Assembly: GCA_904374795.1 (NCBI GenBank)
Contig: CAJFEV010000002.1
Span: forward strand, 1-47,072
Source: an uncultured Bacilli bacterium
Lineage (GTDB): Bacteria > Bacillota_I > Bacilli_A > RF39 > UBA660
Direction: 5' to 3'
Length of the DNA: 47,072 nt
Shown piece by piece: positions 5,002-27,184 of this stretch (positions are counted from its first letter, which is position 1; every line of letters begins with the position of its first letter). The notes below the pieces were generated by a model that was given only the letters and a program-made list of their open reading frames with translations, did not search any database and was not told the origin of the DNA. A program made the position numbers and the translations under genes.

Positions 5002-6087
5002 ATGAATTTAGATGAGATGAAAAAAAACAGTGTAAATAGTGTGGAATTAGTTGATTCTTTACATGCTCCGTTATTGGAGTTTAAAGTAGCTCTAACTACA
5101 TCTAGCACAATACCTACAGAAAGTGATTTAAAGATTTTTGTTGATGATCATGAAACGGATGAAACAAATCGTAAAACTATTATTTATACACTTTCTAAAC
5201 CATTACAGTATGTAAATGGAGTGACAGATAAGTTTATTTTAGAACCGGTTTTTAAAGGAAATATGGTTCAAATGAAAGCTTATGTAGAACGGAATATTAA
5301 TCAAAATTTAGAAGGAGGTCTTGAAGTTTTAGAAATGCCGATTATTGAAGAACTTACATATCAGCCTATTCTTATGTTTTCTTCTTATAACAGGATTTCT
5401 ACCAATTATGAAAATGCAGAGTTAAGTTTACTTTATCCTAAAAATACCGATTTTGTGAAGTATTTTTTAATAAGTAGTTTTTCTTATAGTTTGAATAATG
5501 AAGATAAGTTTTTAACTTTAGATGATATTTATTTTAAAAATTGCTTTACAGAAACAGAAGAAGGGAAAATTAATGCAGAATTTAATAAGTTAACAATTAA
5601 ATGTTTAAATTCTTCAAATAATAATTTTAGTCTAGATTGTGACGGGAATTTGGTAGTGAATAGTATAACTACAAAAGTTCAAGATGAATCTTCTTCAAAT
5701 ATTGATTTCGATCAAATTTATCCTGTCGGTTCAATTTATTTAAGTGTCAGTGCTACTAATCCTGGTATTTTGTTTGGGGGTTCTTGGGAAGCATTTGCAG
5801 CTGGGAAAACCCTAGTTGGAATTGATGCAAATCAAGAAGAATTTAACACGGTAAATAAAATAGGCGGAGAGAAAAAACATACTTTAACGATTGATGAGAT
5901 GCCTAGTCATGATCATAAGCGTCCAAATTCTATTCTTTATAACGGAAATTCATCATGGTGGATAGGTGGCGCTGGTGGTACAACGATTGAGGTCGTTGAA
6001 ACTCCAACAAGTACTTCTGGTGGTAATCAAGCACATAATAACTTGCAACCTTATATAACTATTTATATGTGGAAGAGAGTTGCATAG
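5002..6087 (+). CDS. Protein with C-terminal phage baseplate Gp10-like / tail-collar-type domain
   Basis: C-terminus IYPVGSIYLSVSATNPGILFGGSWEAFAAGKTLVG...GGEKKHTLTIDEMPSHDH...GGNQAHNNLQPYITIYMWKRVA is the typical phage baseplate/tail-fibre tip signature; no signal peptide. Confidence 0.8.
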   Translation: MNLDEMKKNSVNSVELVDSLHAPLLEFKVALTTSSTIPTESDLKIFVDDHETDETNRKTIIYTLSKPLQYVNGVTDKFILEPVFKGNMVQMKAYVERNINQNLEGGLEVLEMPIIEELTYQPILMFSSYNRISTNYENAELSLLYPKNTDFVKYFLISSFSYSLNNEDKFLTLDDIYFKNCFTETEEGKINAEFNKLTIKCLNSSNNNFSLDCDGNLVVNSITTKVQDESSSNIDFDQIYPVGSIYLSVSATNPGILFGGSWEAFAAGKTLVGIDANQEEFNTVNKIGGEKKHTLTIDEMPSHDHKRPNSILYNGNSSWWIGGAGGTTIEVVETPTSTSGGNQAHNNLQPYITIYMWKRVA

Positions 6088-6097
6088 GAGGTTTTGT

Positions 6098-9000
6098 ATG
6101 AAAGAATTAAAAAATTTGAGAAAACCTCGTGAAAAACATTTTTTAAATGAAAACGGACTTATTACTGCGTATATGTATAATGAAGATGTTCATTATTTAA
6201 AAAATCAAGAATATCATGAAATTGATAATTCTTTAATTGAAAAAGAAAACTATTTTCAAAATAAAGAAAATAGTTTTCAAGCACATTTTTTTAAAAATAG
6301 TGAAAATAAAATTTTTGAAATAATAAAAGATGAAAATTTTCTTTCTTTTTCTTTAAATAATTCAAATCATTCTATTATCACTACTAATAAATATGCTATA
6401 ACCTATCAAAATATTTTAAAAAATATAGATATAACCTATCAGTTTATTCATAATAAAATTAAAGATACCATTCTTTTAAAAGACAAAGATAATGATTTTC
6501 AAAAATTAAAGTTTATTATTAGAACAAATTTAGAATTGAAAATGGAAAATAATGAAATTTTTCTTTTTGAACAAGGTAAATTTATTTATAAAATTGAAGC
6601 ACCTATTTTATTAGATAAAAATAAAAATTCATATCCAGTTCATTATGTTTTAGTGAAAAATGAACAGGAATATCTTCTTTCATTTCATGTAGACGAGTCT
6701 TTGCTGCAGGAAAGTGAACTATATCCATTTATTCTTGATCCTACAATTGTGAATGACGATAAGAAAAATGTCTATGATACCTATATTTATCCGGGAGATG
6801 AAAACGCTGATCGAAACAATCAAGAATTCTTAAAAGTTGGTGTAGATAAAAACAATGTTACTTATCGAACTTTATTAAAATTTGATTTACCAACCATTGG
6901 AACCGGATGCGATGTACTGAAAGCAACAGCTGTATTAATAAGTCATCCAAGTGAATTTGTAAAAGATGAGGAAGCTTATTCTCATAAAACTTTTGAAGCC
7001 TATCAAGTCATATCATCTTGGAGTGAGGAAACTGCTAATTGGAATACTATGCATGGTAAGTATAATTCGCATATAGATGATTATTTTTGGGCTTTTAAAA
7101 CAGAATATAATAAAGATGAAAATACTTTTTATTTAAAAGATACAACTATGGATATTACAAATGTTGCAAAAAAGTGGTATGCCGGAGAAGAAAATAATGG
7201 TGTATTGTTAAAACTTGAAGATGAAGTATATGGAGAGGAAAGCATGTATGCTTTTTACTCTAAAAATAATACTGTTTCAGATGAAATGGAGAATATAGAT
7301 GATCCAAAGCCTTATCTTTTAGTTACATATCGTAATCTTAATGGTTTGGAAGATTATATGACATATCAAAATATTCCTTTTCAAGAAGGAACTGGATATG
7401 TAAATAATTTAACTGGAAATTTAACAACAGTTTTTAGAGTTAATGGAACTATTGGAGGAAAATTCCCAATTGAATTAAGTTTGATTTATAATGCAAACGA
7501 TGTTGTGTTAAACAACAATATTGGACTTGGAAAAGGATATCGTTGGAATTTTCAGCAAACTTTAGAAGAAGTTGAAATTTCTGGAGTATCTTATTTAGAA
7601 TATATAGATTCTGATGGTACAATTCATTATTTTTCTAAAATAGATGAAACAACCTATCAAGATGAAGATGGTTTAAATTTTACCATTACTTTGGATAGCG
7701 AGAAATATGTATTAAAAGACAAAGAAAATCACCAAAAGATTTTTGAAAAAAGTGGAAATTTATACTATTTAAAGAAAATTGTTGATACCTATCAAAATGA
7801 AGTAGTTATTTCTTATGATGAAAATCATCGGATTAATGAAGTGAAAGATGCGAATAACGAAAGTATTTATATTACCTATGAAGAGAATAAGATTACTACA
7901 ACAAGTTCATATGAAACGAGTATTTTAAATATCCAAAATGAAAAAATTATAAATCTTGTAACAAAATTCGGAACAACCAGCTTTACTTACGATTCTAAAG
8001 ATTTACTTTCCAAAATCACGGATATAAATTTATTAGAAACAGACTTTGTCTATTATGAAACAAGTCCTTATCGTATGAAAAAAATCATTGAAAAGGGGAC
8101 AGATGGAACTACTGGAAACACGTTAGAATTTTTGTATTCTTTTTTGACAACAAAAACGGTTAATCAAAAAGGACAAGTAAAAAATTATTTGTTTAACTCT
8201 CAAGGAAATACGATTAATGTTACCAGTTTAAAAGATGATTTAGATTTTAAAAATGGGTATGGAACAGAAGATGTTTATGATGCAAATGACAATACTAAAA
8301 ATAAATTGTCTTTACGTATTCCTATTATGAAATATGTAAAAAATTTATTTTTAGATCCAAGCTTTGAAAAAAGAAATGAAGGATTCATTTATGATATAGC
8401 AACAATAGATACTCTAAATGCACGAAGTGGGGAAAAATGTGTTCGAACAAATTATGAAACAGATATTCCTTTGCCTAGTGTTTTAGAATCAGGTTATTAC
8501 ACTTTCAGCGGTTATTTTAAACATACAAGTGGTATGGAACTAACAATTCGAACTTCAAACACAAGTGTTTCTGAAACAAAATATTACACATTTACGGATG
8601 AATATAAACGATATTTTTTAACAGCTTATTTAGAAGCAAATACTTCTTATCATGTTACCGTCTTTCCAATGAATAATTCGACGGTTTATATGGATGATTT
8701 TCAGTTTGAAAGTGGGGAAGTAGTAAATTATCTTAATTTGATTGAAAATCCAGATTTTAGTGATGGAATGGCTGGATGGACAAATTCAGTTTACACGTTA
8801 AATGGAGAGACTACTACGAATGACGATGAAATTATTACTTTAGAAAATGGCCAAACGGTTTACCAGATGAATTGTAAGTCTACCCTTAGTAAAACATTAA
8901 CTAAACAGTTGCAACTCACAGGAAAAAAAGGAGATACGTATAGACTTTCGTTTTGGTATAAAAACGAAGGATTAAAAGATGGTTCGATTGCTGTAGGAAA

Positions 9001-12000
9001 TATTGCATTTTTACTTTTTGGTTATACCTCTGAAGTTCCTCATGGAGTGCCTACGTATAGTTTAAATCCACATGCAACAGAGTGGCAATATTTTGAAAAA
9101 ATTATCATTGCAGAAGAAGATTATACAAGTATTACATTAAATATTATGGCTCAGTTTAATGTAAACAAACTTTATTTTACTAATCTTTACTTAGTAAAAG
9201 ATTTTAGTGGTACTTCTTTTGAGTATGATGAGGAGGGAAACTTAATTTCTTCAACTGATCTTGCCAATTCTACTTCAACATTTCAGTATGACGCGAACAA
9301 TCAATTAGTTAGTAATTTTGCTCCGAAAGGGAATAATTTTCATTTTGAATATGATAATCAAGACTCTCAAAAACTATTACAAGGAGTTTCGACTAAAGGA
9401 ATTGCTAATCAGTTAAAATATGATACTAATCAAAATCCAATTCAAACAATTATTAAAAGTGTAAATTCATCTTTATCTTTAACTGAAGAATACTTTTATA
9501 TAAGAAAGAAAGCTACGGATAAATATTTATTTGCCGATTTTTATAGTAATAGACCTATATTAAAAGATTTTGAATGCAATTTAAGTCGTTTCCAATTAGA
9601 ATTAGAACATGATGAAACGCAAAATAAAGACTATTATTATATAAAAACAGACTTTATTTCAAAATACTTTGCATATCGTGAAAATATCAGTGAGAAAATT
9701 GCGTTTGTAGATACGAAGGAACAGGCTAGTTTATTTGAATTAATTGCAAATAAAAATGGTAGTTATACTTTACGAATCAAGCGAGTAGTTTCCACTGATC
9801 CTGAAGATATCACGCAAGACTCTTGTATTACTTTTGATGAAGAGGATAATTTAATTATTGAAGTGTATCATATGGATGATCCAAGTCAAGAATTGTTTTT
9901 TGAAAGTGCTGAAACCCCTTTATATGTAGAAACAAAAGCAGAATATGAAGAAACAGGAAAGTTTGTTTCCAAAACTATTGATTCTTTAGAAAAAGTTACT
10001 CTTTACGATATTGATGAACTTACAGGCTTAACAAACAGTATTACTAATCCAAAAGGGCAAACTATATATTATGAGTATAATGATAAAGAACAAGTAACAA
10101 AAATTAAGAAAAAAGAAAAAGAAATTCTTTATGCTTATAATACTCAAAATTTACTTTCAAAAATTACAAGTAATAATAAGGAATATACTTTTGATTATGA
10201 TGGATTTTTAAATAAAAAACAAACAAAAATCAATAATCAAATTCTTTCAACAAATCAATATGAAGAAAATAATGGAAATTTAACAAGTGTCAATTACGGA
10301 AACGGAAATACAATTTCCTATACATATGATGATTTTAATCGTTTAAAAACTCACACTAAAAATGGTAGTGTATATACTTATTATTATGACAATATGAATA
10401 ATTTAAGTAGAATTACTTCTAATGAAGAAACGTATGAATATAGTTATGATTTAGCTGGAAGAATAAGCAGTTATTTATATAATCAAAAAGAGTATTTTTC
10501 AGGACAAACTACTATAGATTACGAATATGATAGTAATGGCAATGTTACCAAAAAACGTTTATCTAATGGGTTAGCTATAGAATATACTTATGATGAAGAT
10601 GACAATATCATTAAAGTGGATGTTAACAATGCAACTTTAAATTATCAACGAGATTATTTAGGAAGATTAGTGGGTAAGAATATTAACAATCAAATTCCAA
10701 TTGAATATACGTATTATACAAATGGAAATAAAACATCTTTTGTTTTAAAAAGCATGAAAATTGAAAATGAATTATACGAATATTTCTATGACGATACATA
10801 TAATTTGAGTAAAATATTTAAAAATCAAAAACTTTATCAAGAATATACTTATGATGATTTTAATGAGTTAATAGAAGAACATCATTATGAAAGAGGAAGA
10901 ACATATCGTTATACATATGATGATTCTGGAAACATTTTATTTAAAAGAGAATACGAGTTAAATACTTTTAACCTTTATCATGAAGATAAGTTTTCTTATG
11001 AAAACGAAAATTGGGAGGATCAATTAACAAAATTTAATGATATAGAAATCACTTATGATGCAATTGGTAATCCGACAAGTATTGGAGATGCAACACTTAC
11101 TTGGGCAAATGGAAGAGAATTGCAAAGTTATCAAAATGGAGATTTACAAGTTTCTTATAAGTATAATAAGGATGGAATTCGAAGAAAAAAAATTATTAAT
11201 AATGTAGAAACAGAATACTTTACAGAAAATAACTCGATATTATTTGAAACCACCAGTGGTGTTATGTTATACTATTTACGAGATGACAACAATAGCCTAC
11301 TAGGATTTATTTATAATGGAACAACCTATTATTATAAGAAAAATCTTCAAGATGATATCGTTGGCATCTATACAAGTAATTATGAGCTCATAGCAACCTA
11401 TGAATATGATGCATGGGGAAAAATACTAAGTATAAAAGATCAAAACAACAACGAAATTATAGATGAAACTCATATTGCTATGATTAATCCATTTAGATAT
11501 AGGTCTTACTACTATGATAAAGAAACAAAACTTTATTATTTGAATAGTAGATACTATAATCCAGAATGGGGAAGATTTATTAATGCAGACGGAATCATTG
11601 GTGTACAAAATACTAAAATAGGATATAATTTATTTTTATATGTTTTAAACAGACCTATTCTTTTAGTTGACAATGGTGGGAATTTTTGGAATCCAATTGA
11701 TGTTGGAAAAAAAATATGGGGTGGAATTATGAAATTTGGCGCATATATTGGAGGAATCATCACAGATGCTAAAATTGCTGGAAAAGGATTCGCAAAGTCA
11801 TTTGATGAGTATTACAAGAAAAAATTAGATTTTGATGATAAAGAAAACCTTAGTAACCAAATAAAACATTCTTCTCAATTTCAAAATGCAGTTAAAAATG
11901 CTATTGTTGAATCAAATGGTGATTATTTTAAGGTAAATTCAACTTTAAATTATACAAATGCCACAGGAGATTTGAAACTTTTTATTGGGGAGGCAAACGT

Positions 12001-12199
12001 TTCAATGGAAGGAACACGTATAAATAATATTTGGGTGGTTGATGCTAGAGTCTATGATACATATGATTTCACTGAATGGAGATATGACTTTTCTTTTGGA
12101 TCGATTGCAAATAATTTCGGATTAATTTTATCTGATATAGGATTAGTAAAGCCATATAAATGGGATGTGAATTTTAGAGCAGTTTATAAAATAAAATAA
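6098..12199 (+). CDS. WapA-like RHS/YD-repeat polymorphic toxin with DNRLRE and carbohydrate-binding domains
   Basis: DNRLRE-type segment (YDTYI...YRTLLKFDLP...NNGVLLK...KPYLLVTY), two CBM-like modules (NLFLDPSFE, NLIENPDFSDG), many YD repeats, RHS core (YEYDAWG, NPFRYRSYYYDKETKLYYLNSRYYNPEWGRFINAD), PILLVDNGG cleavage motif; ATG at 6098 after AGGAGG that overlaps the upstream stop. Confidence 0.93.
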   Translation: MKELKNLRKPREKHFLNENGLITAYMYNEDVHYLKNQEYHEIDNSLIEKENYFQNKENSFQAHFFKNSENKIFEIIKDENFLSFSLNNSNHSIITTNKYAITYQNILKNIDITYQFIHNKIKDTILLKDKDNDFQKLKFIIRTNLELKMENNEIFLFEQGKFIYKIEAPILLDKNKNSYPVHYVLVKNEQEYLLSFHVDESLLQESELYPFILDPTIVNDDKKNVYDTYIYPGDENADRNNQEFLKVGVDKNNVTYRTLLKFDLPTIGTGCDVLKATAVLISHPSEFVKDEEAYSHKTFEAYQVISSWSEETANWNTMHGKYNSHIDDYFWAFKTEYNKDENTFYLKDTTMDITNVAKKWYAGEENNGVLLKLEDEVYGEESMYAFYSKNNTVSDEMENIDDPKPYLLVTYRNLNGLEDYMTYQNIPFQEGTGYVNNLTGNLTTVFRVNGTIGGKFPIELSLIYNANDVVLNNNIGLGKGYRWNFQQTLEEVEISGVSYLEYIDSDGTIHYFSKIDETTYQDEDGLNFTITLDSEKYVLKDKENHQKIFEKSGNLYYLKKIVDTYQNEVVISYDENHRINEVKDANNESIYITYEENKITTTSSYETSILNIQNEKIINLVTKFGTTSFTYDSKDLLSKITDINLLETDFVYYETSPYRMKKIIEKGTDGTTGNTLEFLYSFLTTKTVNQKGQVKNYLFNSQGNTINVTSLKDDLDFKNGYGTEDVYDANDNTKNKLSLRIPIMKYVKNLFLDPSFEKRNEGFIYDIATIDTLNARSGEKCVRTNYETDIPLPSVLESGYYTFSGYFKHTSGMELTIRTSNTSVSETKYYTFTDEYKRYFLTAYLEANTSYHVTVFPMNNSTVYMDDFQFESGEVVNYLNLIENPDFSDGMAGWTNSVYTLNGETTTNDDEIITLENGQTVYQMNCKSTLSKTLTKQLQLTGKKGDTYRLSFWYKNEGLKDGSIAVGNIAFLLFGYTSEVPHGVPTYSLNPHATEWQYFEKIIIAEEDYTSITLNIMAQFNVNKLYFTNLYLVKDFSGTSFEYDEEGNLISSTDLANSTSTFQYDANNQLVSNFAPKGNNFHFEYDNQDSQKLLQGVSTKGIANQLKYDTNQNPIQTIIKSVNSSLSLTEEYFYIRKKATDKYLFADFYSNRPILKDFECNLSRFQLELEHDETQNKDYYYIKTDFISKYFAYRENISEKIAFVDTKEQASLFELIANKNGSYTLRIKRVVSTDPEDITQDSCITFDEEDNLIIEVYHMDDPSQELFFESAETPLYVETKAEYEETGKFVSKTIDSLEKVTLYDIDELTGLTNSITNPKGQTIYYEYNDKEQVTKIKKKEKEILYAYNTQNLLSKITSNNKEYTFDYDGFLNKKQTKINNQILSTNQYEENNGNLTSVNYGNGNTISYTYDDFNRLKTHTKNGSVYTYYYDNMNNLSRITSNEETYEYSYDLAGRISSYLYNQKEYFSGQTTIDYEYDSNGNVTKKRLSNGLAIEYTYDEDDNIIKVDVNNATLNYQRDYLGRLVGKNINNQIPIEYTYYTNGNKTSFVLKSMKIENELYEYFYDDTYNLSKIFKNQKLYQEYTYDDFNELIEEHHYERGRTYRYTYDDSGNILFKREYELNTFNLYHEDKFSYENENWEDQLTKFNDIEITYDAIGNPTSIGDATLTWANGRELQSYQNGDLQVSYKYNKDGIRRKKIINNVETEYFTENNSILFETTSGVMLYYLRDDNNSLLGFIYNGTTYYYKKNLQDDIVGIYTSNYELIATYEYDAWGKILSIKDQNNNEIIDETHIAMINPFRYRSYYYDKETKLYYLNSRYYNPEWGRFINADGIIGVQNTKIGYNLFLYVLNRPILLVDNGGNFWNPIDVGKKIWGGIMKFGAYIGGIITDAKIAGKGFAKSFDEYYKKKLDFDDKENLSNQIKHSSQFQNAVKNAIVESNGDYFKVNSTLNYTNATGDLKLFIGEANVSMEGTRINNIWVVDARVYDTYDFTEWRYDFSFGSIANNFGLILSDIGLVKPYKWDVNFRAVYKIK
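11281..11585 (+). repeat. 305-bp RHS-core repeat, copy 1 (inside the full-length toxin)
   Basis: Near-identical to 12838-13142 (about 6 substitutions counted by eye). Confidence 0.95.
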
Positions 12200-12226: not shown

Positions 12227-12754
12227 ATGAAAAAAACATTAATAAGTATGACTATTTTCTTAGCAATACTTGTATATTTTCAATACACTACTTCTTGCAA
12301 ATTTGCTTTTAAAGTTAATTATGATTTGAAGATGCCTGAACCTGAGTCACATCATGTATATTTTTCAGGCTTTCAAGATGTACCTGTGTTTACAGAACAT
12401 AAGTACAAAGATACTTTAAACGAAAAAACATTAAAACAATTTAATAGATTTAATAGTTCTAATGATATGGATATTGTTATGAAATATTTACGTGCTTATT
12501 TAAATCTATTGTCAAATGAAAATAAAGAAATTGTAATATCAAATTTTTCTAAAGATATTCTTAATGAAAATAATTATTATTTTGTTTACGATAAAAACAG
12601 GCGTTTCACTATACTCATTTATGATGTAAAAACAAAAGTTTTATACGAGATGATAGCTACCTACTGTTACAGAAATTGTCCTAGAAAATTAATTGATGAA
12701 GAAAATAATTATAATATTGCTGATGAGTTTATTATAAAGGAGATTGAATGGTAA
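12227..12754 (+). CDS. Putative cognate immunity protein, N-terminally anchored/exported
   Basis: Directly after the RHS gene; hydrophobic N-terminus MKKTLISMTIFLAILVYFQYTTSC; GAGG RBS. Confidence 0.7.
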   Translation: MKKTLISMTIFLAILVYFQYTTSCKFAFKVNYDLKMPEPESHHVYFSGFQDVPVFTEHKYKDTLNEKTLKQFNRFNSSNDMDIVMKYLRAYLNLLSNENKEIVISNFSKDILNENNYYFVYDKNRRFTILIYDVKTKVLYEMIATYCYRNCPRKLIDEENNYNIADEFIIKEIEW

Positions 12755-12774
12755 AAATATAACAATAAATCATA

Positions 12775-12831
12775 AAAAAAGCATCAAGAAAAAGAAATCT
12801 TGATGCTTTTTTAAAAATTTTAAGGTATAAT
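12775..12831 (+). repeat. Array junction element J1 (hairpin terminator plus -10 box)
   Basis: AAAAAAGCATCAAGA-AAAAGAAA-TCTTGATGCTTTTTT then TTTAAGGTATAAT. Confidence 0.85.
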
Positions 12832-12837
12832 TTATCT

Positions 12838-13142
12838 AGATGACAACAATAGCCTACTAGGATTTATTTATAATGGAACGACTTATTATTATAAGAAAAA
12901 TCTTCAAGATGATATTGTTGGCATCTATACAAGTAATTATGAGCTCATAGCAACCTATGAATATGATGCATGGGGAAAAATACTAAGCATAAAAGATCAA
13001 AACAACAACGAAATTACAGATGAAACTCATATTGCTATGATTAATCCATTTAGATATAGGTCTTACTACTATGATAAAGAAACAAAACTTTATTATTTAA
13101 ATAGTAGATACTATAATCCAGAATGGGGAAGATTTATTAATG
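12838..13142 (+). repeat. 305-bp RHS-core repeat, copy 2 (orphan module)
   Basis: Near-identical to 11281-11585. Confidence 0.95.
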
Positions 13143-13786
13143 GCGATAATTTAATATTGCAAAATACTAATACGTTATTAAGCAATAATTTATATCTTTA
13201 TTGTGATAATAATGTAATTAATAATACTGATAAAAATGGCCATCATATTTTTACCGCTAATATAGAATTATTAAAAGAATATTCTTATAGTATCTCTGAT
13301 ATCGGAAGTAACACTGTTATGGTGGAGATTGAAATTGGAGATAGTTATTATGTAGCAACAATGTCAAATAATGCAATACATTTTGCATTTTCAGAAAACC
13401 CAGATCTGAAGGATAATGGTTATACTATAGCAACAGCCTTATACGAAGCATATCATGATTTTTATTTGGAAGATATGACAGGAAGAACTTTTGCTGGAAT
13501 AAAATCAGAAATTGTTATTCATAAACTAGCCAATGATTTATTTGAAACTTTGAAAATGGAAAAATTGAACGAAAGGAGCAAAATTGCAGATATTGGTACT
13601 ACAAAATCTGATAATAATGCATGGATTTTTAAAGAATTTACGCCTCCTGTAATTGTTATTGAAGATAAAAAGAGTAAAACTAATTCTTTAACACAAAATT
13701 ACTGCCCTGTACCTAAAAAGCCAAAATCTAAAAATCCTTTTCGCGAATTTTTGGGATGGCTAGGAAATTTGTTTCTAATATTATGA
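12839..13786 (+). CDS. Orphan RHS C-terminal toxin module (5'-truncated RHS core plus alternative tip)
   Basis: Frame is open from DDNNSLLGFIYNG at 12839, first ATG at 13037 without clear RBS; core ends NNVINNTDKNG, then a tip unrelated to the main toxin. Confidence 0.85.
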   Translation, partial: DDNNSLLGFIYNGTTYYYKKNLQDDIVGIYTSNYELIATYEYDAWGKILSIKDQNNNEITDETHIAMINPFRYRSYYYDKETKLYYLNSRYYNPEWGRFINGDNLILQNTNTLLSNNLYLYCDNNVINNTDKNGHHIFTANIELLKEYSYSISDIGSNTVMVEIEIGDSYYVATMSNNAIHFAFSENPDLKDNGYTIATALYEAYHDFYLEDMTGRTFAGIKSEIVIHKLANDLFETLKMEKLNERSKIADIGTTKSDNNAWIFKEFTPPVIVIEDKKSKTNSLTQNYCPVPKKPKSKNPFREFLGWLGNLFLIL

Positions 13787-13806
13787 TATTGAAAGGAAAT
13801 TTGAAT

Positions 13807-14457
13807 ATGAAAGAAAAAGTAAAAAAAATAGTTTATAGTAAAGTATGGAATATTATTGATATTTTTCTTATTTTATTTTTACTATTTCATTATGTCTTTT
13901 TTATCAAATTTTCTTTTCAATTATCGTTTGTTTTTCCCATTTTAAATATTTTATTAGTTATTTTAAGTGTTTTTAGAATAATTGTTAGATTTATTTTAAT
14001 TTTTAAAGAAAGAAAATTTTTGAGATTCATGAATATTCTTTTTGTATTGTTCTTTTTACCATTACTTTTTTTAGCAGGAGCTTTGAAATTTGTAGATTTA
14101 ATCTTTCCACTTTTTTATAGAGATACGTATTATTTTTCCGAAAATTTTGAAGAAAGTTTTACATCTTATACTTATTTTAGTGGAACTGATGCCGATACGT
14201 ATATTTTTTACGAAAAAGAATTAGGTTTTGGAATTAAATGTATAGCTATGATAGATTATTATCATGAAATTTTTAATACTTCCACTTCTGCAGATAAAGA
14301 AGTTTATAAAAATTATATAAAAAACACAAAATTAAATATTGACTATAATAAATATATCTTAGAAATTGAAAAAGGTGATGATTTAGGTTTTTGTTATCAC
14401 AATTTAGCACAGAAATATGAAAGTGAAAATAATGTTATAGAATATTTCTTTGATTAA
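13807..14457 (+). CDS. Putative membrane immunity protein for the orphan tip
   Basis: Three hydrophobic helices followed by a soluble domain; ATG at 13807 after GAAAGGA. Confidence 0.7.
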   Translation: MKEKVKKIVYSKVWNIIDIFLILFLLFHYVFFIKFSFQLSFVFPILNILLVILSVFRIIVRFILIFKERKFLRFMNILFVLFFLPLLFLAGALKFVDLIFPLFYRDTYYFSENFEESFTSYTYFSGTDADTYIFYEKELGFGIKCIAMIDYYHEIFNTSTSADKEVYKNYIKNTKLNIDYNKYILEIEKGDDLGFCYHNLAQKYESENNVIEYFFD

Positions 14458-14640
14458 TCTATTATTTTTCAGAAATGAGTTAATGAATTAAAATATCGTT
14501 TTTCTTCACTATCAATTGAAAAAATTATAGAAATAATCAAATACTCGGAATAAGCCTAATCCAAAAAAGTCAATTTATATTCAAGCTGCTATTGATTATT
14601 TTGGCGAAGAAACTTATGTGGGAAGTCTAGGAGGCATAAC

Positions 14641-15375
14641 ATGGTAAGAAGATTTAATGAATTAAAAACAGGTGATACTTTTGCTTGGAAAATTGAAACA
14701 GATGAATATCCGGATTTTAAAGGAAGGTATATAATATTAACCTATTATTATAATGAAGATTTTGAAAAAAGGAGTTGTAAGCTTTTTAGACTTAAAATAA
14801 CAAAAGATAAAAAACTTCCTGTAAATGAAGAAGAAGTGAATAATTTAGAAGATATTAAATTATGTCATAATATATATGAATTAGCCATTAAAGAATATGA
14901 AGAGGCTAAAAGTGCTATACCCGATGAATATGGTTATATATATCAGTATACTTTAAATATGTATATTGATCGCAAAACTTTGCCTAAAAAATTAAATTAT
15001 ATCGGAAATTTTCAATTAAAACCTATTCCAAATGAGTTTTATTCTAAAACAAGAACGAGAAATCAAGCTGGTGCTTGTTGGGAATATTTTGATGAGAATA
15101 TTTTAAGACCCTATGTGCAATATAATTTAAAACAGTTTATGGGATACACTAAGGAAGGAAATAAAAGAATATATGATCATGAAGTGGATGCAGAAAATTT
15201 CAGAATGTATTTAAAAAAATTAGGTGACGCTATAGAAGGACCTAATGGAAAAGAAGTATTAAAGGCTTTAGGAATAGATATTGATCAGGAAATAAAAGAA
15301 GGAAAACATTTAAAAGACAGTTTAACATATGTAGGTCCAAAAGAAGAAAAAAACATCAAGAAAAAGAAATCCTGA
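14641..15375 (+). CDS. Putative cytoplasmic immunity protein, paralogue P1
   Basis: AGGAGG RBS; shares GDTF...EY...GRY, DEYGYIY, YIGNF, YNLK, YTKEGN, LGIDI, KDSLTYVG with three other array genes. Confidence 0.75.
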   Translation: MVRRFNELKTGDTFAWKIETDEYPDFKGRYIILTYYYNEDFEKRSCKLFRLKITKDKKLPVNEEEVNNLEDIKLCHNIYELAIKEYEEAKSAIPDEYGYIYQYTLNMYIDRKTLPKKLNYIGNFQLKPIPNEFYSKTRTRNQAGACWEYFDENILRPYVQYNLKQFMGYTKEGNKRIYDHEVDAENFRMYLKKLGDAIEGPNGKEVLKALGIDIDQEIKEGKHLKDSLTYVGPKEEKNIKKKKS

Positions 15376-15403
15376 TGTTTTTTCTTTATATTTAAGATAT
15401 AAT
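15343..15403 (+). repeat. Array junction element J2
   Basis: AAAAAAACATCAAGA-AAAAGAAA-TCCTGATGTTTTTT then TTTAAGATATAAT; contains the P1 stop codon. Confidence 0.85.
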
Positions 15404-15422
15404 GGCTTTAGGAAGTGCTTAA

Positions 15423-16166
15423 ATGAAGAGAAAAAGAAATCATTATAATTTAATTGTTTATGCATCAAGACTATTTATAATAAGTGGGTTTATTTTTTTA
15501 ATGTTATTTTCATTAGGAAACATGGAAATTGTATCTTGCTTAAAGAAATATGAAATATTACTACTTATTATGTCTTTTGCTTGTGCTTTTATTTTGTTTA
15601 TTCTTTTAGCTTTGTTAGATAAATATGAAAATAAAATTACTATTGATTTGGATTTTCCACGAAAACCTTTTGTCTATAATGTTTTAGACTTACATGCATT
15701 AGAAACTTCAATATCGATACAATTAACTAAATTGAATTATGTACGAGATTCTTCTTCTTTTTCTGATTTTGACATTTATTATAATTATAAATATGTTTGG
15801 TGGTATTCTGGAAAAAAGCGTCAATTAAATACTTTTGTACAATTTGAATATGAAGAATTTACTAACGAAATAAAAAAATATTTATTGTTACAAAGACAAG
15901 AAATCTTTTATAAGTTGCATAAAAAAGCAAAATTTTGTCAAACAATATTTTTAGTTAAAATAAAAAATAATAATAAATATTTAGAAAAATACTTGAAAGA
16001 AGTAGTACCACAATTTTTAAGAAATTATTTTTTAATAGCAATACTTGTTGAAGAAGATGGGAAAATATATATTCCTCATTGTGATATTTCTTTTTTAGAA
16101 TATAGAGAAATGAGAAAAAGATTAGAAAAAATTTTATATGAACAAATAAAACGTGTTAAGAGATAA
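15423..16166 (+). CDS. Hypothetical membrane protein (2 N-terminal TM helices), putative immunity
   Basis: 247-aa ORF with AGGAAG RBS inside the array. Confidence 0.7.
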   Translation: MKRKRNHYNLIVYASRLFIISGFIFLMLFSLGNMEIVSCLKKYEILLLIMSFACAFILFILLALLDKYENKITIDLDFPRKPFVYNVLDLHALETSISIQLTKLNYVRDSSSFSDFDIYYNYKYVWWYSGKKRQLNTFVQFEYEEFTNEIKKYLLLQRQEIFYKLHKKAKFCQTIFLVKIKNNNKYLEKYLKEVVPQFLRNYFLIAILVEEDGKIYIPHCDISFLEYREMRKRLEKILYEQIKRVKR

Positions 16167-16203
16167 AAATCTTAATGCGTTTTTTAAAGTTTTAAGATAT
16201 AAT
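16148..16203 (+). repeat. Array junction element J3 (divergent)
   Basis: AAAACGTGTTAAGA-GATAAAAA-TCTTAATGCGTTTT then TTTAAGATATAAT. Confidence 0.75.
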
Positions 16204-16209
16204 TAATTT

Positions 16210-16332
16210 AGATGACAACAACCTACTAGAATTTATTTATAATGAAATTTATTATAAAAAAGCATCAAAACGATATCGTTGGCATTTATATTAGTTATTA
16301 TGAATATAATGCATGATGCAAAATACTGAATA
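16210..16332 (+). pseudogene. Decayed third copy of the RHS-core repeat
   Basis: AGATGACAACAACCTACTAGAATTTATTTATAATG...GATATCGTTGGCATTTATA...TATGAATATAATGCATG...AAAATACT aligns with 11281-11430 with indels and stops. Confidence 0.8.
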
Positions 16333-16412
16333 CTGATATCAACTTTTACCCTGGGTGTAGGTAGATATCAAGTATTATTAAAACAAAAATTCATATAGGG
16401 ATGTGTTTTGTA

Positions 16413-16976
16413 ATGAAAAAGTATATTGAGCAACAGCATAAAGTAAATACAAAAAAATTACTAATATTATCAATAATGTTATTATTGTTTAATAGTATTA
16501 AATCTTGGTTTGCACTAGATATAGAAGTTATTATAAGCATTCTACTTAATTTAATAGGCTTTTTTTTAAACATTTATATTATTATAAAAGTAATAAAAAC
16601 AAAAAACAGAAATTATTTTCAAGTAATAATATTAATAATGGCTATTTTGTTAAATTTTATTCCTTTGTCAGATTATAAAGTCTATTTAGATTTTTATAAA
16701 ACAGAAAACTTAAGGATGGAGGTAATACAACAATACCAAAATGTGAATATGTTTTTAATACAGTTAGATGAAAAATATAAGGACTTATCGCAAAATGGTG
16801 TTATTTTGAATTATGATGGTCAAGTGTTTAGTTTTCCTATTTATACTACTACCTCAATTTATGAGGGAAATTATATAATTTATTCTCAGGAAAAAGAAGA
16901 AGAGTTGGTTAATTATATTGGCAGAATTTATTCTATAAAAAACTTGGCGGATAATTGGTATTATATTAAATGCTGA
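16413..16976 (+). CDS. Putative membrane immunity protein (orphan)
   Basis: Three TM helices plus soluble C-terminal domain ending IKNLADNWYYIKC; follows the RHS remnant; start could also be 16401. Confidence 0.65.
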   Translation: MKKYIEQQHKVNTKKLLILSIMLLLFNSIKSWFALDIEVIISILLNLIGFFLNIYIIIKVIKTKNRNYFQVIILIMAILLNFIPLSDYKVYLDFYKTENLRMEVIQQYQNVNMFLIQLDEKYKDLSQNGVILNYDGQVFSFPIYTTTSIYEGNYIIYSQEKEEELVNYIGRIYSIKNLADNWYYIKC

Positions 16977-17026
16977 AAAGATACTAAAAATTTCAATAAA
17001 TATTTTGCGAATATAGGAGGAATCAA

Positions 17027-17752
17027 TTGATGAAAAAGAGTTTAAGAACAAGCAAACCAGGAGATATATACTATTTTCCGATATCTAGTAAGGAATATCC
17101 AAAATATAAAGGAAAATATATTGTTTTAATTCGAAATAGTTTTGATGAATTATGGAATATGCCTTTTAAAACGTTTTACTGTAAAATTGTTGATGCGATA
17201 GATATGGAAAGTATTACTAAGGCTCCATATGTAGTAAGCGGACATACTATTATTGAACGGGAATTAGGTGATAAAGCCCCAAACTATGATATGCCAACAA
17301 AAGACGAATATGGTTTTATTTATATGTATACATTAGAAGTTAAAATGACTAGGAAAATGGATCAATTTGATATGCAGTATTTAGGAAATTTTCCATTGCT
17401 TCATCCAGAAAATGAATTTGTTTCTATACATGGCAGTAGAGGTGAAACTTTTTGCTTTTATTATCAAATAGAAGAAGAAGTAATTCAAAATTATGAGCAG
17501 TACAATTTAAAAAAGAGCGAGCGTTATACCAAAGAAGGAAACAACCGCGCCCTTCAGCTGTTGCAATATGATGTATTAGTTAGAAAATGGATGGCAGAAG
17601 AGGAAAAAAGTTGGAATGGAGATACAAAAGGTTGGCTATTATCTTTGGGAATAGATATTGACCAGGAAATAAAAGAAGGAAAACATTTAAAAGACAGTTT
17701 AACATATGTGGGTCCAGAAGAAGAAAAAAACATCAAGAAAAAGAAATCCTGA
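17027..17752 (+). CDS. Putative immunity protein, paralogue P2
   Basis: AGGAGG RBS; family motifs GDIY, DEYGFIY, YLGNF, YNLK, YTKEGN, LGIDIDQEIKEGKHLKDSLTYVG. Confidence 0.75.
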   Translation: MMKKSLRTSKPGDIYYFPISSKEYPKYKGKYIVLIRNSFDELWNMPFKTFYCKIVDAIDMESITKAPYVVSGHTIIERELGDKAPNYDMPTKDEYGFIYMYTLEVKMTRKMDQFDMQYLGNFPLLHPENEFVSIHGSRGETFCFYYQIEEEVIQNYEQYNLKKSERYTKEGNNRALQLLQYDVLVRKWMAEEEKSWNGDTKGWLLSLGIDIDQEIKEGKHLKDSLTYVGPEEEKNIKKKKS

Positions 17753-17782
17753 TGTTTTTTTTCTTTAAATTTAAGATATAAT
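17721..17782 (+). repeat. Array junction element J4
   Basis: Same hairpin as J2 then TTTAAGATATAAT. Confidence 0.85.
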
Positions 17783-17863
17783 GTTTTTAGAAAATAATTT
17801 AGACAAAAAAATATTTGTTCTTCATACTAACATTTATTTTTTAGAATAGAAAAGAGGTATATC

Positions 17864-18595
17864 ATGGTAAAAAGATTTAATGAATTAAAAACAGGTGATA
17901 CTTTTGCTTGGAAAATCGAAACAGATGAATATCTGGATTTTAAAGGAAGGTATATTATATTAACCTATTATTATAATGAAGATTTTGAAAAAAGAAGTTG
18001 TAAGCTTTTTAGACTTAAAATAACGAAAGATGAAAAACTTCCTGTAAATGAAGAAGAAGTGAACAATTTAGAAGATATTAAACTACGTTATAATATATAT
18101 GAATTGGCCATTAAAGAATATGAGGAGGCTAAGAATGCTATTCCTGATGAATATGGTTATATATATCAGTATACTTTGGAGATGTATATTGACCGTAAAA
18201 CTTTGCCTAAAAAATTAATTTATATTGGAAATTTCCAATTAAAACCTATTCCAAATGAGTTTTATTTTAAGAAAGGAACAAGAAATCAAGCATATGCTTG
18301 TTGGGAATATTTTGATGAGGATATTTTAAGACCCTATGTACAATATAATCTAAAACAATTTATGGGATACACTAAGGAAGGAAATAAAAAAATATATGAT
18401 CATGAAGTAGAGGAGGAAAATTTCAGAATGTATTTAAAAAAATTAGGTGACGCTATAGAAGGACCTAATGGAAAAGAAGTATTAAAGGCTTTAGGAATAG
18501 ATATTGACCAAGAAATAAAAGAAGGAAAACATTTAAAAGACAGTTTAACATATGTGGGTTCCAAAGAAGAAAAAGCTATTAAGAAGAAGCCTTAA
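17864..18595 (+). CDS. Putative immunity protein, paralogue P3 (recent duplicate of P1)
   Basis: Roughly 90% amino-acid identity to 14641-15375 by eye; GAGGT RBS. Confidence 0.78.
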   Translation: MVKRFNELKTGDTFAWKIETDEYLDFKGRYIILTYYYNEDFEKRSCKLFRLKITKDEKLPVNEEEVNNLEDIKLRYNIYELAIKEYEEAKNAIPDEYGYIYQYTLEMYIDRKTLPKKLIYIGNFQLKPIPNEFYFKKGTRNQAYACWEYFDEDILRPYVQYNLKQFMGYTKEGNKKIYDHEVEEENFRMYLKKLGDAIEGPNGKEVLKALGIDIDQEIKEGKHLKDSLTYVGSKEEKAIKKKP

Positions 18596-18623
18596 GAATT
18601 CTTCTTTACGTTTAAGGTGTAAT
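18563..18623 (+). repeat. Array junction element J5 (divergent)
   Basis: AAAGAAGAA...TTAAG-loop-CTTAA...TTCTTCTTT then TTTAAGGTGTAAT. Confidence 0.65.
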
Positions 18624-18648
18624 AAAAATTGATAATGTGGGTGATAGT

Positions 18649-19413
18649 ATGGGAAAAGTCGTAGATAAAACTAAAATCAATAATTGGGTAACCGGTGATA
18701 CATTTATTCAAAAGATAAAAAGCAATGAATTCTCTGAATATAACGGAAAATATTTGATTTATATACATGAAGAGGTTGAATGTTCATTAGCTGAAAAAAG
18801 GTCAAAATATTTTCGTGTTAAATTAACGCATACAAAGAAGTTACCTAGAACTAAGAAAGATATTGAAGATGCAGAATATGTAAAGATGCGTGCAGTTTTT
18901 CCTGATGCAGAGCAAAAAAATTTTTATAAAGATACCTACTTTGAATTTCCTAAAGCGGATGTTTATGGATTTATATATATATATTTATTTCGAATTATTT
19001 TTATACGAGGCAGTAAATTAAATGAATTCAAATATATTGGAAATTTTGACATTACTAAACCCACTGAAGAATATGTTCCATTTCCAAATTTGTTGCAAGA
19101 GCCAAATAGAATTTATAGATTTGCTATGGATAGTTGTTTGGAAAATTATAGAAATTATAATTTGAGGCAATTTTTTGGTTATACTAAAGAAGGTAATAAA
19201 GAACTACATTTTCGTGCATTGCATATGTTTGATATTATGAATCAAATAGGAAATTTAGTTTATGAAGAATCCGAAAGATGGAAAGGAAGAGAAAAGGAAT
19301 GGCTACTATCTATGGGAATAGATATTGAAAAGGAGAAAAAGAAAAGAAAAAAAGATACATTAACATATGTGGGTCCAGAAGAAGAAAAAAGCATCAAGAA
19401 AAAGAAATCCTGA
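18649..19413 (+). CDS. Putative immunity protein, paralogue P4
   Basis: Family motifs GDTF, DVYGFIY, YIGNF, YNLR, YTKEGN, MGIDI, DTLTYVGPEEEK; ATG at 18649 after GGTGA. Confidence 0.75.
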   Translation: MGKVVDKTKINNWVTGDTFIQKIKSNEFSEYNGKYLIYIHEEVECSLAEKRSKYFRVKLTHTKKLPRTKKDIEDAEYVKMRAVFPDAEQKNFYKDTYFEFPKADVYGFIYIYLFRIIFIRGSKLNEFKYIGNFDITKPTEEYVPFPNLLQEPNRIYRFAMDSCLENYRNYNLRQFFGYTKEGNKELHFRALHMFDIMNQIGNLVYEESERWKGREKEWLLSMGIDIEKEKKKRKKDTLTYVGPEEEKSIKKKKS

Positions 19414-19441
19414 TGTTTTTTCTTTAATTTTAAGATATAAT
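19382..19441 (+). repeat. Array junction element J6
   Basis: AAAAAAGCATCAAGA-AAAAGAAA-TCCTGATGTTTTTT then TTTAAGATATAAT. Confidence 0.85.
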
Positions 19442-19460
19442 GGCTTTAGGAAGTGCTTAA

Positions 19461-19646
19461 ATGAAAAAGAAAAGAAATTATTATAATTTAATTGTTTATG
19501 CATCAAGACTATTTATAATAAGTGGATTTATTTTTTTAATGTTATTTTCATTAGGAAACATGGAAATTGTATCTTGGCTAAAGAAATATGAAATATTACT
19601 ACTTATTATGTCTTTTGCTTGTGTTTTTGATTTTTTTCCGCAATAA
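19461..19646 (+). pseudogene. 3'-truncated duplicate of 15423-16166
   Basis: First ~54 codons near-identical to 15423ff, then abrupt loss of similarity and a stop. Confidence 0.85.
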
Positions 19647-27100: not shown

Positions 27101-27184
27101 TATTCTCCACCTTTATTCATTATAGCAAACAAACTATCGTTTGACAATCGAGGAAATATTTTCTATACTTAATTCGTGAGAATT

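Follow-up and report, generated by a model that had tools for sequence, protein, structure and literature searches.

The window analyzed here (the whole stretch of DNA, 47,072 bases) belongs to an AT-rich Bacilli genome and contains the locus of a 2039-aa Rhs toxin. The full-length toxin gene (6080..12199, on the + strand, as are all the features of the array located below) matches RHS_repeat in Pfam (2e-32), and the C-terminal 339 aa of its product match the Rhs_assc_core model of NCBIfam (6e-17); the 712 homologues of this toxin are mostly about 2000 aa long. Its core ends near position 11585, and the variable C-terminal toxin region corresponds to 11586-12199. Two 5'-truncated rhs fragments and small ORFs matching no known family are present 3' of the toxin gene, and the G+C content of this array is slightly below that of its flanks (24-27% versus 28-32%). 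A segment of the rhs core (11262..11585) is repeated in both of the orphan fragments, as judged from nucleotide identity: it matches 12820-13142 with 96.3% identity over 325 nt, and 16210-16303 with 79% identity over 105 nt. This segment is the left-hand homology arm of every Rhs module. Each of the modules (three in the window and one in L001, a locus of 2,973 nt which was the sole related one found and to which the strain comparison is confined) shows rhs-core homology at its left edge and, at its right edge, the short repeat under study, called J.

Gene A (12227..12754), an ORF of 175 aa with a signal-peptide-like N-terminus, matched no family in Pfam or NCBIfam and is presumed, purely from its position, to be the immunity gene of the main toxin. 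Orphan 1 (12824..13786; Rhs_assc_core in NCBIfam, 4.4e-18) consists of a 5'-truncated rhs core fragment and a different C-terminal toxin region. It is followed by imm1 (13807..14457), an ORF of 216 aa with a hydrophobic N-terminal half, which has no J behind it and is presumed to be the immunity gene of orphan 1. Gene C (15423..16166; an ORF of 247 aa with a hydrophobic N-terminus) precedes the remnant of orphan 2 (16209..16376), which was recognized by identity and by comparison with L001 and includes a degenerate rhs core fragment and the last traces of a toxin region. This toxin region is intact in L001, where positions 1125-1169 match 16334-16376. Gene D (16401..16976; 191 aa), which is 96.9% identical to positions 1277-1911 of L001, is not followed by a J in the window. 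Four paralogous B genes occur in the array: B1 (14641..15375), defined by family alignment and profile, B2 (17027..17752), which aligns with the family and is 38% identical to B1, B3 (17864..18595), the body of which is 93% identical to that of B1 while its 3' end has diverged in the identity profile, and B4 (18637..19413, with a likely start at ATG 18649), which is 34% identical to B1. The array ends with C' (19461..19646), a truncated second copy of gene C showing 90% identity to it over 59 aa; a blastn tract pairs 15271-15598 with 19315-19637, where the homology stops.

The hairpin and box repeat

The six-fold recurrence of a hairpin and TATAAT unit, as described in the first-pass annotation, was confirmed, the unit being 57 bases long. 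J1 (12775..12831) has a perfect 15-bp hairpin (12775-12812, loop 12790-12797) and a box at 12819-12831. It is not fused to gene A, the stop codon of which (12752-12754) lies 21 nt before it, and its similarity to J2, J4, and J6 is confined to the unit itself. In the other five copies the upstream stop codon was found inside the hairpin region, as had been claimed: in the 3' arm, as TGA, in J2 (15347..15403; hairpin 15347-15384, B1 stop 15373-15375, box 15391-15403), J4 (17724..17782; hairpin 17724-17761, B2 stop 17750-17752, box 17770-17782), and J6 (19385..19441; hairpin about 19385-19422, B4 stop 19411-19413, box 19429-19441), and as TAA in the loop of J3 (16148..16203; diverged but compensated hairpin 16148-16183, C stop 16164-16166, box 16191-16203) and in the degenerate J5 (18563..18623; interrupted T-run, B3 stop 18593-18595, box TTTAAGGTGTAAT at 18611-18623). 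The near-constant spacing also held: the distance from the ...ATG end of the 3' arm to the box is 13, 13, 13, 15, and 13 nt in J1, J2, J3, J4, and J6, respectively.

The J repeat is genuine and confined to the array. The 13-nt box TTTAAGRTRTAAT has six exact matches in the 47,072 bases, all of them on the + strand and in the array (starting at 12819, 15391, 16191, 17770, 18611, and 19429); when up to one mismatch was allowed, 10 matches were obtained, a number that compares with an expectation of 2.66 and was not reached in any of 100 shuffles. A search for the whole arrangement, from the loop end through the 3' arm, the T-run, and the gap to the box, gave five matches versus 0.00 expected, and among the genomes of 185,579 species, each represented by one genome, the arrangement occurred at a single locus, namely the homologous Rhs locus. 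With a covariance model, the six copies in the window and the two in L001 scored 62-88 bits (62.1 bits in the case of J5), and the scan of the window yielded nothing between these scores and the best unrelated match, an ordinary terminator at 29350 (25.5 bits). All the copies have the same orientation and lie within 6.7 kb, and J is absent at the imm1|B1 (14458-14640) and D|B2 (16977-17026) boundaries. The statement that the unit follows and precedes unrelated genes stood only in part, since four of the six upstream genes are B paralogues and the end of gene C is B4-like over about 50 nt, while the six downstream contexts form three homologous pairs (rhs core fragment, C, and B, each occurring twice).

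The hairpins of J1, J2, J3, J4, and J6 consist of 14-15 pairs around an 8-nt loop, in line with the original description, which did not hold for J5. The + strand folding energies of these five copies are -18.4, -13.8, -15.5, -14.8, and -13.8 kcal/mol, with z-scores of -6.6, -3.6, -4.4, -3.1, and -2.3, respectively. The fold of J5 is not significant: it reaches -8.3 kcal/mol (z +0.24), a stability matched by 113 of 200 shuffles. The hairpin has been kept by compensatory change: 83.8% of the cells in the hairpin columns are paired, a share that drops to 41-63% if the partner is displaced by 1-3 columns, and changes on both sides occur at three pairs, with a covariation score (0.279 versus 0.168) reached by only 1 of 500 shuffles. 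The succession of hairpin, T-run, and TATAAT box fits the proposed anatomy of an intrinsic terminator and a -10 element, and the hairpin may have terminator activity. The argument drawn from the wobble pairs of J3 in favor of an RNA terminator applies to J3, which folds better on the + strand (-15.5 versus -8.6 on the - strand), but not to J2, J4, and J6, in which an A.C mismatch on the + strand corresponds to G.U on the - strand, and which fold better on the latter (-17.2, -17.9, and -17.0 versus -13.8, -14.8, and -13.8).

The box is the most conserved segment, the mean pairwise identity being 93% across J1-J6 and 97% without J5; the arms and loop reach 70-79%, and the spacer of 6 nt reaches 51%. 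That J2, J4, and J6 are so alike may be a sign of recent duplication and not of selection. Five different sequences adjoin the 3' edge of the box, and the homology between J1 and J2 or J6 ends exactly at its last base (12831 with 15403 and 19441). In the L001-Jb copy, the box has decayed, and the downstream gene is 5'-truncated and probably dead. A consensus promoter scan of the window listed none at any J; by eye, at most two of six positions match at -35 and the TG extension is absent. The -10 of J lies only 19 nt before the start codon of gene C, so that a transcript would have its ribosome-binding site right at its 5' end. The promoter activity suggested for the box is therefore weakly grounded.

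The B gene family and the related locus

The B genes are presumed to be immunity or accessory genes; none of 25 family members matched Imm26 in Pfam, and a fold search against the PDB gave no matches. In the sliding identity profile, the bodies of B1 and B2 are 31-62% identical, and the last 150 nt or so, including J, are 85-97% identical. The pattern is reversed between B1 and B3 (87-100% in the body, dropping to 66-75% at the 3' end). A blastn tract links 15266-15414, at the end of B1, with 17643-17793, at the end of B2, and the 3' homology block delimited by these two methods (15257..15414) comprises the gene end, J2, and about 11 nt. On other contigs, the body of protein P0025 resembles that of B1 and its end belongs to the B4 type; P0034 carries the B1/B2 type of end on a body of 36% identity. 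These profiles indicate that the B genes are mosaics, the common block of which consists of the gene end and J.

J2, J4, J5, and J6 are the native 3' ends of B genes, the hairpin encoding a lysine-rich tail and the stop codon. The tail ends in ...KKS in 13 of the 25 aligned B-family proteins (40 were found in all), and it is disordered in the structure model: the AlphaFold model of B1 has a pLDDT of 88, falling below 50 in residues 231-244. The stretch 12774-12803 of J1 reads KKSIKKKKS*, like a B tail, and the codons of J3 are in phase with the tail of J2. In gene C, the final 50 nt or so before the hairpin (16095-16147) are B4-like (local alignment score 40, versus 20.6 +/- 3.7 in the shuffled controls, none of 500 reaching 40). 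Judging from these similarities, the six copies all lead back to a single source, the 3' end of the B family. The portability attributed to the unit by the first-pass annotation was not borne out, given this common origin and the single locus detected among the species genomes.

In L001, which is 96.5% identical to the window over 860 nt, the order is main toxin, D, B remnant, J, C, J', and a 5'-truncated A. Gene D lies directly 3' of the main Rhs toxin there, whereas in the window it is A that belongs to the main module, D being part of a degenerate module that follows C and J3. These gene orders indicate that the main and orphan modules have been swapped in the related strain. The B remnant in front of J measures 48 nt (hmm positions 225-240). 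One breakpoint between the two loci falls inside a J, at 16183, and this, together with the J shared by the B mosaics, speaks for J as a recombination point; the other breakpoints between the strains, which speak against it, are outside J. The deletion of B in L001 has its end point at a repeat of 11 nt, 12-22 nt before J, and the switch from core to toxin region is also outside J. Protein P0046, a Gp10-C fusion, implies a deletion at a microhomology of about 15 nt unrelated to J.

Interpretation and comparison with known systems

We consider it probable (roughly 0.6) that J is the 3' homology block of the tandem B family in this Rhs array and was spread by general recombination, much like the staphylococcal esaG arrays. 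The unit would comprise the last codons of B, specifying the disordered lysine-rich tail and the stop, an overlapping hairpin of the Rho-independent type, and then the 13-nt box ending in TATAAT. The hairpin might end the transcription of each module, and the box might weakly restart it, so that the downstream immunity genes would still be expressed after the loss of the toxin part. Unequal crossing-over and gene conversion of the RecA type would use the block of 57-150 nt as a passive substrate, and modules could thereby be duplicated, deleted, and re-sorted; a dedicated recombinase would be unnecessary. J and the rhs core bracket every Rhs module.

J might also be a passive relic, consisting of B's own terminator and the start of an ancestral follower copied by segmental duplication. 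In that case only the terminator would function, the conservation of the box would reflect the youth or the homogenisation of the copies, and J would have no special role in rearrangement. The tracing of all the copies to B ends, the location of J2, J6, and L001-Ja within long duplicated tracts (the 15271-15598 tract and the 860 nt shared with L001), the position of most strain breakpoints outside J, and the lack of canonical promoter features are all in keeping with this idea. It is nevertheless the less likely account, because the box has retained 93% identity although the arms, loop, and spacer of J1 and J3 have diverged, the homology of J1 with J2 and J6 stops at the last base of the box, and the box has decayed before a probably dead gene in L001-Jb. 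A derivation of the box from the eroded 5' end of an orphan rhs fragment is rather doubtful; each J would once have been a terminator joined to an rhs core fragment, and the junctions J|C, J|B3, J|B4, and J'|A would have resulted from the loss of the toxin part and from selection of the -10-like sequence with the immunity gene. The rhs homology does begin 6 nt past the box in J1 and J3, the starting point being identical, and modules from which the toxin part was deleted are known, namely orphan 2 in the window and J' with the truncated A in L001. The frame through the box, G-I-I-Y-L-D-D-N-N, resembles the consensus ...[VI]-[IL]-Y-Y-[LI]-R-D..., which was seen in the 21 homologue rows, of 27, that cover the position (the regular expression matched 27 of 120 Rhs proteins, in 6 of the 27 elsewhere). 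The similarity between the box and the main rhs gene, however, amounts to 13 matches in 20 positions, with a gap of 9 nt and in DNA that is AT-rich, and the frame has a stop codon directly before it. This origin of the box would be compatible with the spread of J as a B-family homology block and does not exclude it.

It is very unlikely that J is a site-specific recombination site (integron attC-like, rAID-like, or Xer-dependent), the arms of which are bound by a tyrosine recombinase moving the cassettes. Arms of 9-15 bp around a conserved, asymmetric 8-nt spacer do recall the outline of recombinase core sites, and five different sequences adjoin the box in a window carrying a xerD gene. Against this, no integrase or recombinase was found in the 4.4-24 kb part of the window, and the only tyrosine recombinase in the window lies 7.7 kb beyond the array, behind unrelated genes; it passes the cut-off of the housekeeping XerD equivalog (337.8 versus 329.6) and fails the integron-integrase model (155 versus 265). 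The arms of J3 co-vary, which means that arms have not been reassorted at the spacer, and the only homology boundary in the loop comes from the diverged 5' arm of J3. Some boundaries lack J, which is fused in frame to coding sequence, and a single locus was detected in the species genomes. The analogy with integrons and rAID arrays put forward in the first-pass annotation was not supported, and J looks like the common tail of one duplicated gene family rather than an integron-like cassette site. The least probable origin is a miniature mobile element, MITE- or REP-like, inserting at gene ends: J is short, structured, multi-copy, and located beside different genes, but its copies share one orientation within 6.7 kb, with none elsewhere in the window and a single locus among the species genomes. 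Searches of plasmids and phages gave no match, Rfam contained no family, and inspection revealed neither target duplications nor any terminal inverted repeats other than the hairpin itself.

Integron attC sites resemble J in being imperfect inverted repeats at the 3' ends of cassettes. The array differs in that it has no IntI and no shared upstream promoter serving promoterless cassettes, each J carrying its own -10-like box, and J is absent at some boundaries and fused to ORFs. The rAID-1 arrays of Bacteroidales join a XerD-family recombinase and repetitive intergenic sequences (Ross et al., bioRxiv 10.1101/471110). As far as that account describes them, they are similar in having small genes arrayed behind systems for interbacterial toxins, a repetitive intergenic sequence, and a slightly lower G+C content; this likeness is one of description, and here no recombinase heads the array, J lies within coding sequence, and the phylum and the toxin system are different. 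The T6SS immunity arrays of Vibrio cholerae, resulting from sequential effector displacement (Kirchberger et al., 2017, PMC5361080), differ in organism and secretion system, and the conserved region is not described as a terminator or promoter in the parts of that paper drawn upon here.

Recombination between main and orphan rhs genes via their common core sequence has been documented (Koskiniemi et al., 2014, PMC3967940). The likeness with the parts of that study considered here extends to the full-length rhs gene followed by 5'-truncated fragments with nearly the same core (96% identity over 325 nt in this window and 95% over 522 bp in that study) and to the presence of another module in the main position in a related strain. 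The present genome is of the Gram-positive type (Bacilli), and each module has a J on its right-hand side, of which those parts make no mention. The esaG and tipC arrays of Firmicutes (Garrett et al., 2022, PMC9484751) differ from this locus, going by the portions of that report used here, in that J is also found behind the non-paralogous A and C and adjoins orphan rhs fragments, the locus is of the Rhs and not the T7SS type, the stop codon falls within the terminator-like hairpin of J, and the B genes, of presumed function, form an unrelated family. Those same portions describe similar features: non-identical tandem paralogues, mosaic alleles, and homologous recombination with no dedicated recombinase. 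The 'homology block 3' of esaG, which covers the gene end and the downstream intergenic region, is reported there to mediate the gain and loss of paralogues (PMC9484751).

Gene order behind the Rhs gene

The window is AT-rich (G+C 23-32% per 2-kb window, and 24-27% over the array) and carries housekeeping and sporulation genes, lepA, a ProRS, SpoIVB and SpoIIM among others. A full-length rhs gene (6080-12199, + strand) encodes a protein of 2039 aa with RHS repeats (Pfam RHS_repeat, 2e-32) and the Rhs-associated core domain (NCBIfam). Relatives of about 2000 aa number in the hundreds, and the few named ones belong to uncultured Bacilli. Two ORFs stand in front of it (4415-6087). One, small and secreted-looking, is cadherin-like (E = 0.0044, short of the Pfam cut-off). 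The other encodes 361 aa, carries the C-terminal domain of phage baseplate Gp10 (9.5e-30) and has a stop codon overlapping the Rhs start; a protein of this type is not the usual companion of an Rhs toxin.

The array behind the Rhs gene lies entirely on the + strand. Gene A (12227-12754) is followed by J1, the first copy of the junction repeat, an orphan rhs fragment (orphan 1, 12824-13786) and imm1 (13807-14457). Then come B1 (14641-15375), ending in J2, C (15423-16166), ending in J3, a degenerate second orphan rhs fragment (orphan 2, 16209-16376) and D (16401-16976). The paralogues B2 (17027-17752), B3 (17864-18595) and B4 (18637-19413) end in J4, J5 and J6, respectively, and a truncated second C (19461-19646) closes the array. 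The two fragments are 5'-truncated, contain the common core sequence, differ in their C-terminal regions and are each accompanied by a small ORF; together with the complete rhs gene upstream, they give the array the organization of an Rhs main/orphan locus. The C-terminal regions of the rhs genes were not assigned to any Pfam or NCBIfam family. Since A, imm1, B1-B4, C and D likewise match no family in these two collections, the array genes are read as immunity genes from their position.

Directly past the array, a 103-aa ORF (19748-20059) gave a weak, sub-threshold match to TnpV (E = 0.001, 19.5 vs 27 bits). It is followed at 21656-24066 by genes for a 606-aa HerA-type helicase (DUF87), which anti-phage HerA models match at 1e-43, far below their cut-offs, and for a 186-aa protein of no family; the two may form a defence pair. 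A DDE transposase gene (DDE_Tnp_1_4, 31074-32162, - strand) lies about 11 kb from the array, and no link between them was seen.

Anatomy and specificity of the J repeat

Exact matches to the box closing the repeat, TTTAAGRTRTAAT, number six in the window, and each lies at a site listed in the first-pass annotation. The combined pattern of loop end, 3' arm, T-run and box has five matches, as against 0.00 expected, with arm-to-box spacings of 13, 13, 13, 15 and 13 nt. The six-fold recurrence of the unit is real. A hairpin had been described in every copy: this holds for J1, J2, J3, J4 and J6, which form hairpins of 14-15 pairs with 8-nt loops (z-scores -2.3 to -6.6), and not for J5, in which no significant hairpin was detected (z +0.24). 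When the six copies were aligned with the two copies found in L001, the only related locus detected in another genome, 83.8% of the cells paired, as compared with 41-63% when the partners were slid; three hairpin pairs change on both sides, and the covariation score of this eight-copy alignment was reached by 1 of 500 shuffles.

The covariance model built from the eight copies, which score 62-88 bits, was used to scan the 47 kb with filters off: only the J copies scored high, no further copy was detected, and all other matches stayed at or below 25.5 bits, barring the reverse strands of the copies. The match at 29350 (25.5 bits), considered as an extra copy, is an unrelated terminator. Since the ordinary terminators of the window (after 4906, 23476 and 29376, for example) are unrelated to J in sequence, J is a specific family and not the generic terminator of this genome. 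The same scan detected no copy at the imm1|B1 or the D|B2 boundary, although such gaps would still be permitted by cassettes of several genes.

On the coding strand, five of the six copies place a stable stem-loop with an immediate T-run at the end of a gene, as expected of a terminator. A terminator scan reported the J sites only on the - strand, because its + strand stem absorbs the T-run. The argument that G-U wobbles favour an RNA acting on the + strand is valid for J3; J2, J4 and J6 show the opposite, with an A.C mismatch on the + strand and G.U on the - strand. The -10 hexamer TATAAT is exact in five copies, J5 having TGTAAT, and the anatomy proposed for the unit, a terminator followed by a box, is sound.

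Whether the box acts as a promoter is another matter. None of the J copies was among the promoter sites listed by a consensus scan (best 60 of 116), the -35 position (16-18 nt), read by eye, shows at most two of six sigma-A matches at any copy, the box has no TG extension, and only 19 nt separate the -10 hexamer from the start codon of C. On paper, the box would make a weak promoter. Elsewhere in the window, a canonical-looking promoter was noticed by eye upstream of 21656. The mean pairwise identity between J1-J6 is 72% in the 5' arm, 79% in the loop, 70% in the 3' arm, 51% in the spacer and 93% in the box, and the homology of J1 to J2 or J6 reaches precisely to the final base of the box, which argues that the box has been kept by more than recency. 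Termination and re-initiation of transcription are plausible candidate functions of J.

Probable descent of J from B-gene ends

Each of the four B paralogues has a J copy as its 3' end (J2, J4, J5 and J6): the tail ...E-K-x-I-K-K-K-K-S is specified by the 5' arm and the loop of the hairpin, with the stop codon in the 3' arm. In the alignment of 25 of the 40 B homologues, the conserved protein stops at D-S-L-T-Y-V-G and is variable beyond, the ...KKS end being present in 13 of the 25 (hand count). In the AlphaFold model of B1 (pLDDT 88, pTM 0.77), residues 231-244 fall below 50. although gene A does not run into J1, the stretch 12774-12803 still reads KKSIKKKKS-stop; the codons of J3 are in phase with those of J2, with an earlier stop; the approximately 50 nt of C preceding J3 resemble the end of B4 (score 40 vs 20.6 +/- 3.7, reached by 0 of 500 shuffles); and in L001 a 48-nt B remnant precedes the J copy. 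Taken together, these features make descent of all the J copies from B-gene ends the simplest history, as far as it may be read from the sequences. The 100 nt before J1 do not resemble the end of any B gene, an equal score being reached by 217-374 of 500 shuffles. Six-frame translations searched with a B-family HMM yielded the four genes, the L001 remnant and nothing else, neither ahead of J1 nor between imm1 and B1.

The B genes are tandem, non-identical paralogues (34-93% identity), as are those of esaG arrays; B2, B3 and B4 adjoin, and B1 lies 1.6 kb upstream. In 60-nt windows, B1 and B2 show 31-62% identity in the body, then 85-97% from about 15257 through J, and B1 and B4 are 90-95% identical over the last 100 nt or so. 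B1 and B3 show the opposite, their identity dropping from 87-100% to 66-75%. Two homologous proteins from other contigs are mosaics of the same kind, P0025 combining a B1-like body with a B4-type end and P0034 a 36%-identical body with a B1/B2-type end. The family thus has a homology block with mosaic alleles that runs from the gene end into the intergenic sequence behind it, as is the case for esaG.

The 11-nt motif AYWTATGTRGG occurs six times in the window, as against 0.09 expected, and five of these copies are in the array (14612, 15325, 17702, 18548 and 19363): four of them encode the invariant T-Y-V-G close to the ends of the B genes, and the fifth belongs to the B1 leader. An assignment of B to Imm26 was suggested by an Atlas lead of only 0.83 and was dropped, as 0 of 25 B members match that family. 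The B1 model gave no PDB match at E <= 0.001, and the B family may have an undescribed fold.

Exchange of modules and relation to known systems

Among the 185,579 species genomes covered by one scan, only L001 gave a match to the J pattern; this locus is the end of a contig (2,973 nt) in the MAG of an uncultured Bacilli member. It is 95-98% identical to segments of the window, in rearranged order: rhs core, an intact toxin region, D, the B remnant, J, C, a J3-type hairpin and A without its first ~70 nt. The main module of L001 is therefore the degenerate orphan 2 of the window, and the main immunity gene of the window, A, is the truncated trailing gene of L001; the difference in order indicates that main and orphan modules have been exchanged. 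Orphan 2 (16209-16376, compared with 629-1276 in L001) retains almost none of its toxin-coding region, but D, at 96.9% identity to L001, is still whole; here a toxin has been lost and its partner gene kept.

The first-pass annotation had proposed J as a recombination point, and the breakpoints between window and L001 bear this out only in part. Within J3, the homology to L001 breaks off at 16183, after the hairpin and before the box, and L001 continues with a decayed box joined to internal A sequence. In this second L001 copy (2817-2839), the J3-type hairpin is kept, the spacer carries CTTT as in the J2/J4/J5/J6 type, a single deletion and a single substitution have degraded the box, and the 5'-truncated A comes next. 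The switch from core to toxin sequence at 11585 lies outside J. So do the ends of the B deletion: the body of B is missing in L001 exactly between two AYWTATGTRGG copies, that of the B1 leader (14612) and that of the T-Y-V-G codons, the latter end lying within the block but 12-22 nt before J (one comparison locus). Another contig encodes P0046 (222 aa), in which the first 190 aa of the Gp10-domain protein (89% identical) are joined to the last ~37 aa of C at a common E-E-G-K-I stretch, with a microhomology of about 15 nt (window 5557-5575 and 16050-16066). Unless it is an assembly chimera, the alternative to be borne in mind, P0046 would point to a strain that has lost the entire rhs gene and the greater part of the array, by a deletion whose end-points have nothing to do with J. 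Given breakpoints both inside and outside the repeat, and those of P0046, J is one recombination substrate among several.

J had also been likened to the cassette sites of integrons and of rAID-1 clusters, and this analogy is not supported: no recombinase accompanies the array, J is missing at two boundaries, and the hairpin arms co-vary rather than reassort. An integron has an integrase gene beside its array; no integrase or recombinase family was found in any ORF of 153-24975, and the only tyrosine recombinase, XerD (27176-28081), is separated from the end of the array by 7.7 kb and by unrelated genes (HerA-like, ThiF, gpsA-like and MgsA-type ATPase among them). This XerD passes the cut-off of the housekeeping XerD equivalog (337.8 vs 329.6) and falls below that of integron integrases (155.3 vs 265). 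The defining features of rAID-1 arrays are skewed G+C, repetitive sequences between the genes and a XerD-family recombinase that is conserved (10.1101/471110). No such recombinase heads the present array; the six J copies do provide repetitive sequences between array genes, which overlap coding sequence however, and Pfam and NCBIfam give A, imm1, B1-B4, C and D no homology to known immunity genes. Of the features that define rAID-1, only the repeats and, weakly, the G+C are thus shared by the present array.

The other identities considered fare no better. A MITE or small mobile element would have dispersed copies, terminal repeats and target duplications, which were not found in the window, species genomes, plasmids or phages; in a blastn search with distant settings, the plasmid and phage collections gave no match to 12700-19700. 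For an Xer/dif-like site, the only likeness noticed, by inspection, is the ribosome-binding region of the C leader, which stands behind only two of the six copies. The only Rfam matches, two sub-threshold ones of the hairpins to a microRNA family (29.7 and 25.8 bits, gathering threshold 70), are attributable to chance.

The best-supported account is that of a gene-end homology block combined with general recombination. J would be the gene-end block of the B family and, along with the rhs core, would bracket modules, which general recombination would then shuffle; in all four modules seen in the window and L001, the left edge is core homology and the first right-hand repeat is J. It is also possible, though we would give this only about one chance in five, that J is not a mere relic but a selected, self-contained module end, which closes the frame with an in-phase stop, ends the transcript and restarts transcription for the next gene. 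With the rhs core it would then form a two-armed homology scaffold, the segment between the arms being swapped, duplicated or dropped by general recombination, and J would be a recombinase-free functional analogue of the integron cassette site in gut Bacilli. Should J indeed act as terminator and promoter, this would account for the continued expression of immunity genes once their toxins are deleted.

Toxin/immunity arrays decide the coexistence of strains, and the gain and loss of their genes have been worked out for few model systems. Here, in poorly studied, uncultured AT-rich Bacilli, every Rhs module has rhs-core homology at its left edge and, at its right edge, a gene-end block of 57 nt, and main and orphan modules have changed places in a related strain; the J covariance model provides a simple marker for locating module limits in related genomes. 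In the literature listings consulted, no junction of this type was described for Rhs loci of Bacilli. The locus does not reveal a new recombination mechanism. In the part of the esaG study available, homology block 3 takes in the end of the gene together with the intergenic sequence that follows, and the B family shows the same mosaic pattern (PMC9484751); the exchange of modules in L001 is that known for rhs main/orphan loci, as described in the accessible part of PMC3967940. The J locus is best placed among these known kinds, esaG-type blocks and Rhs orphan arrays.
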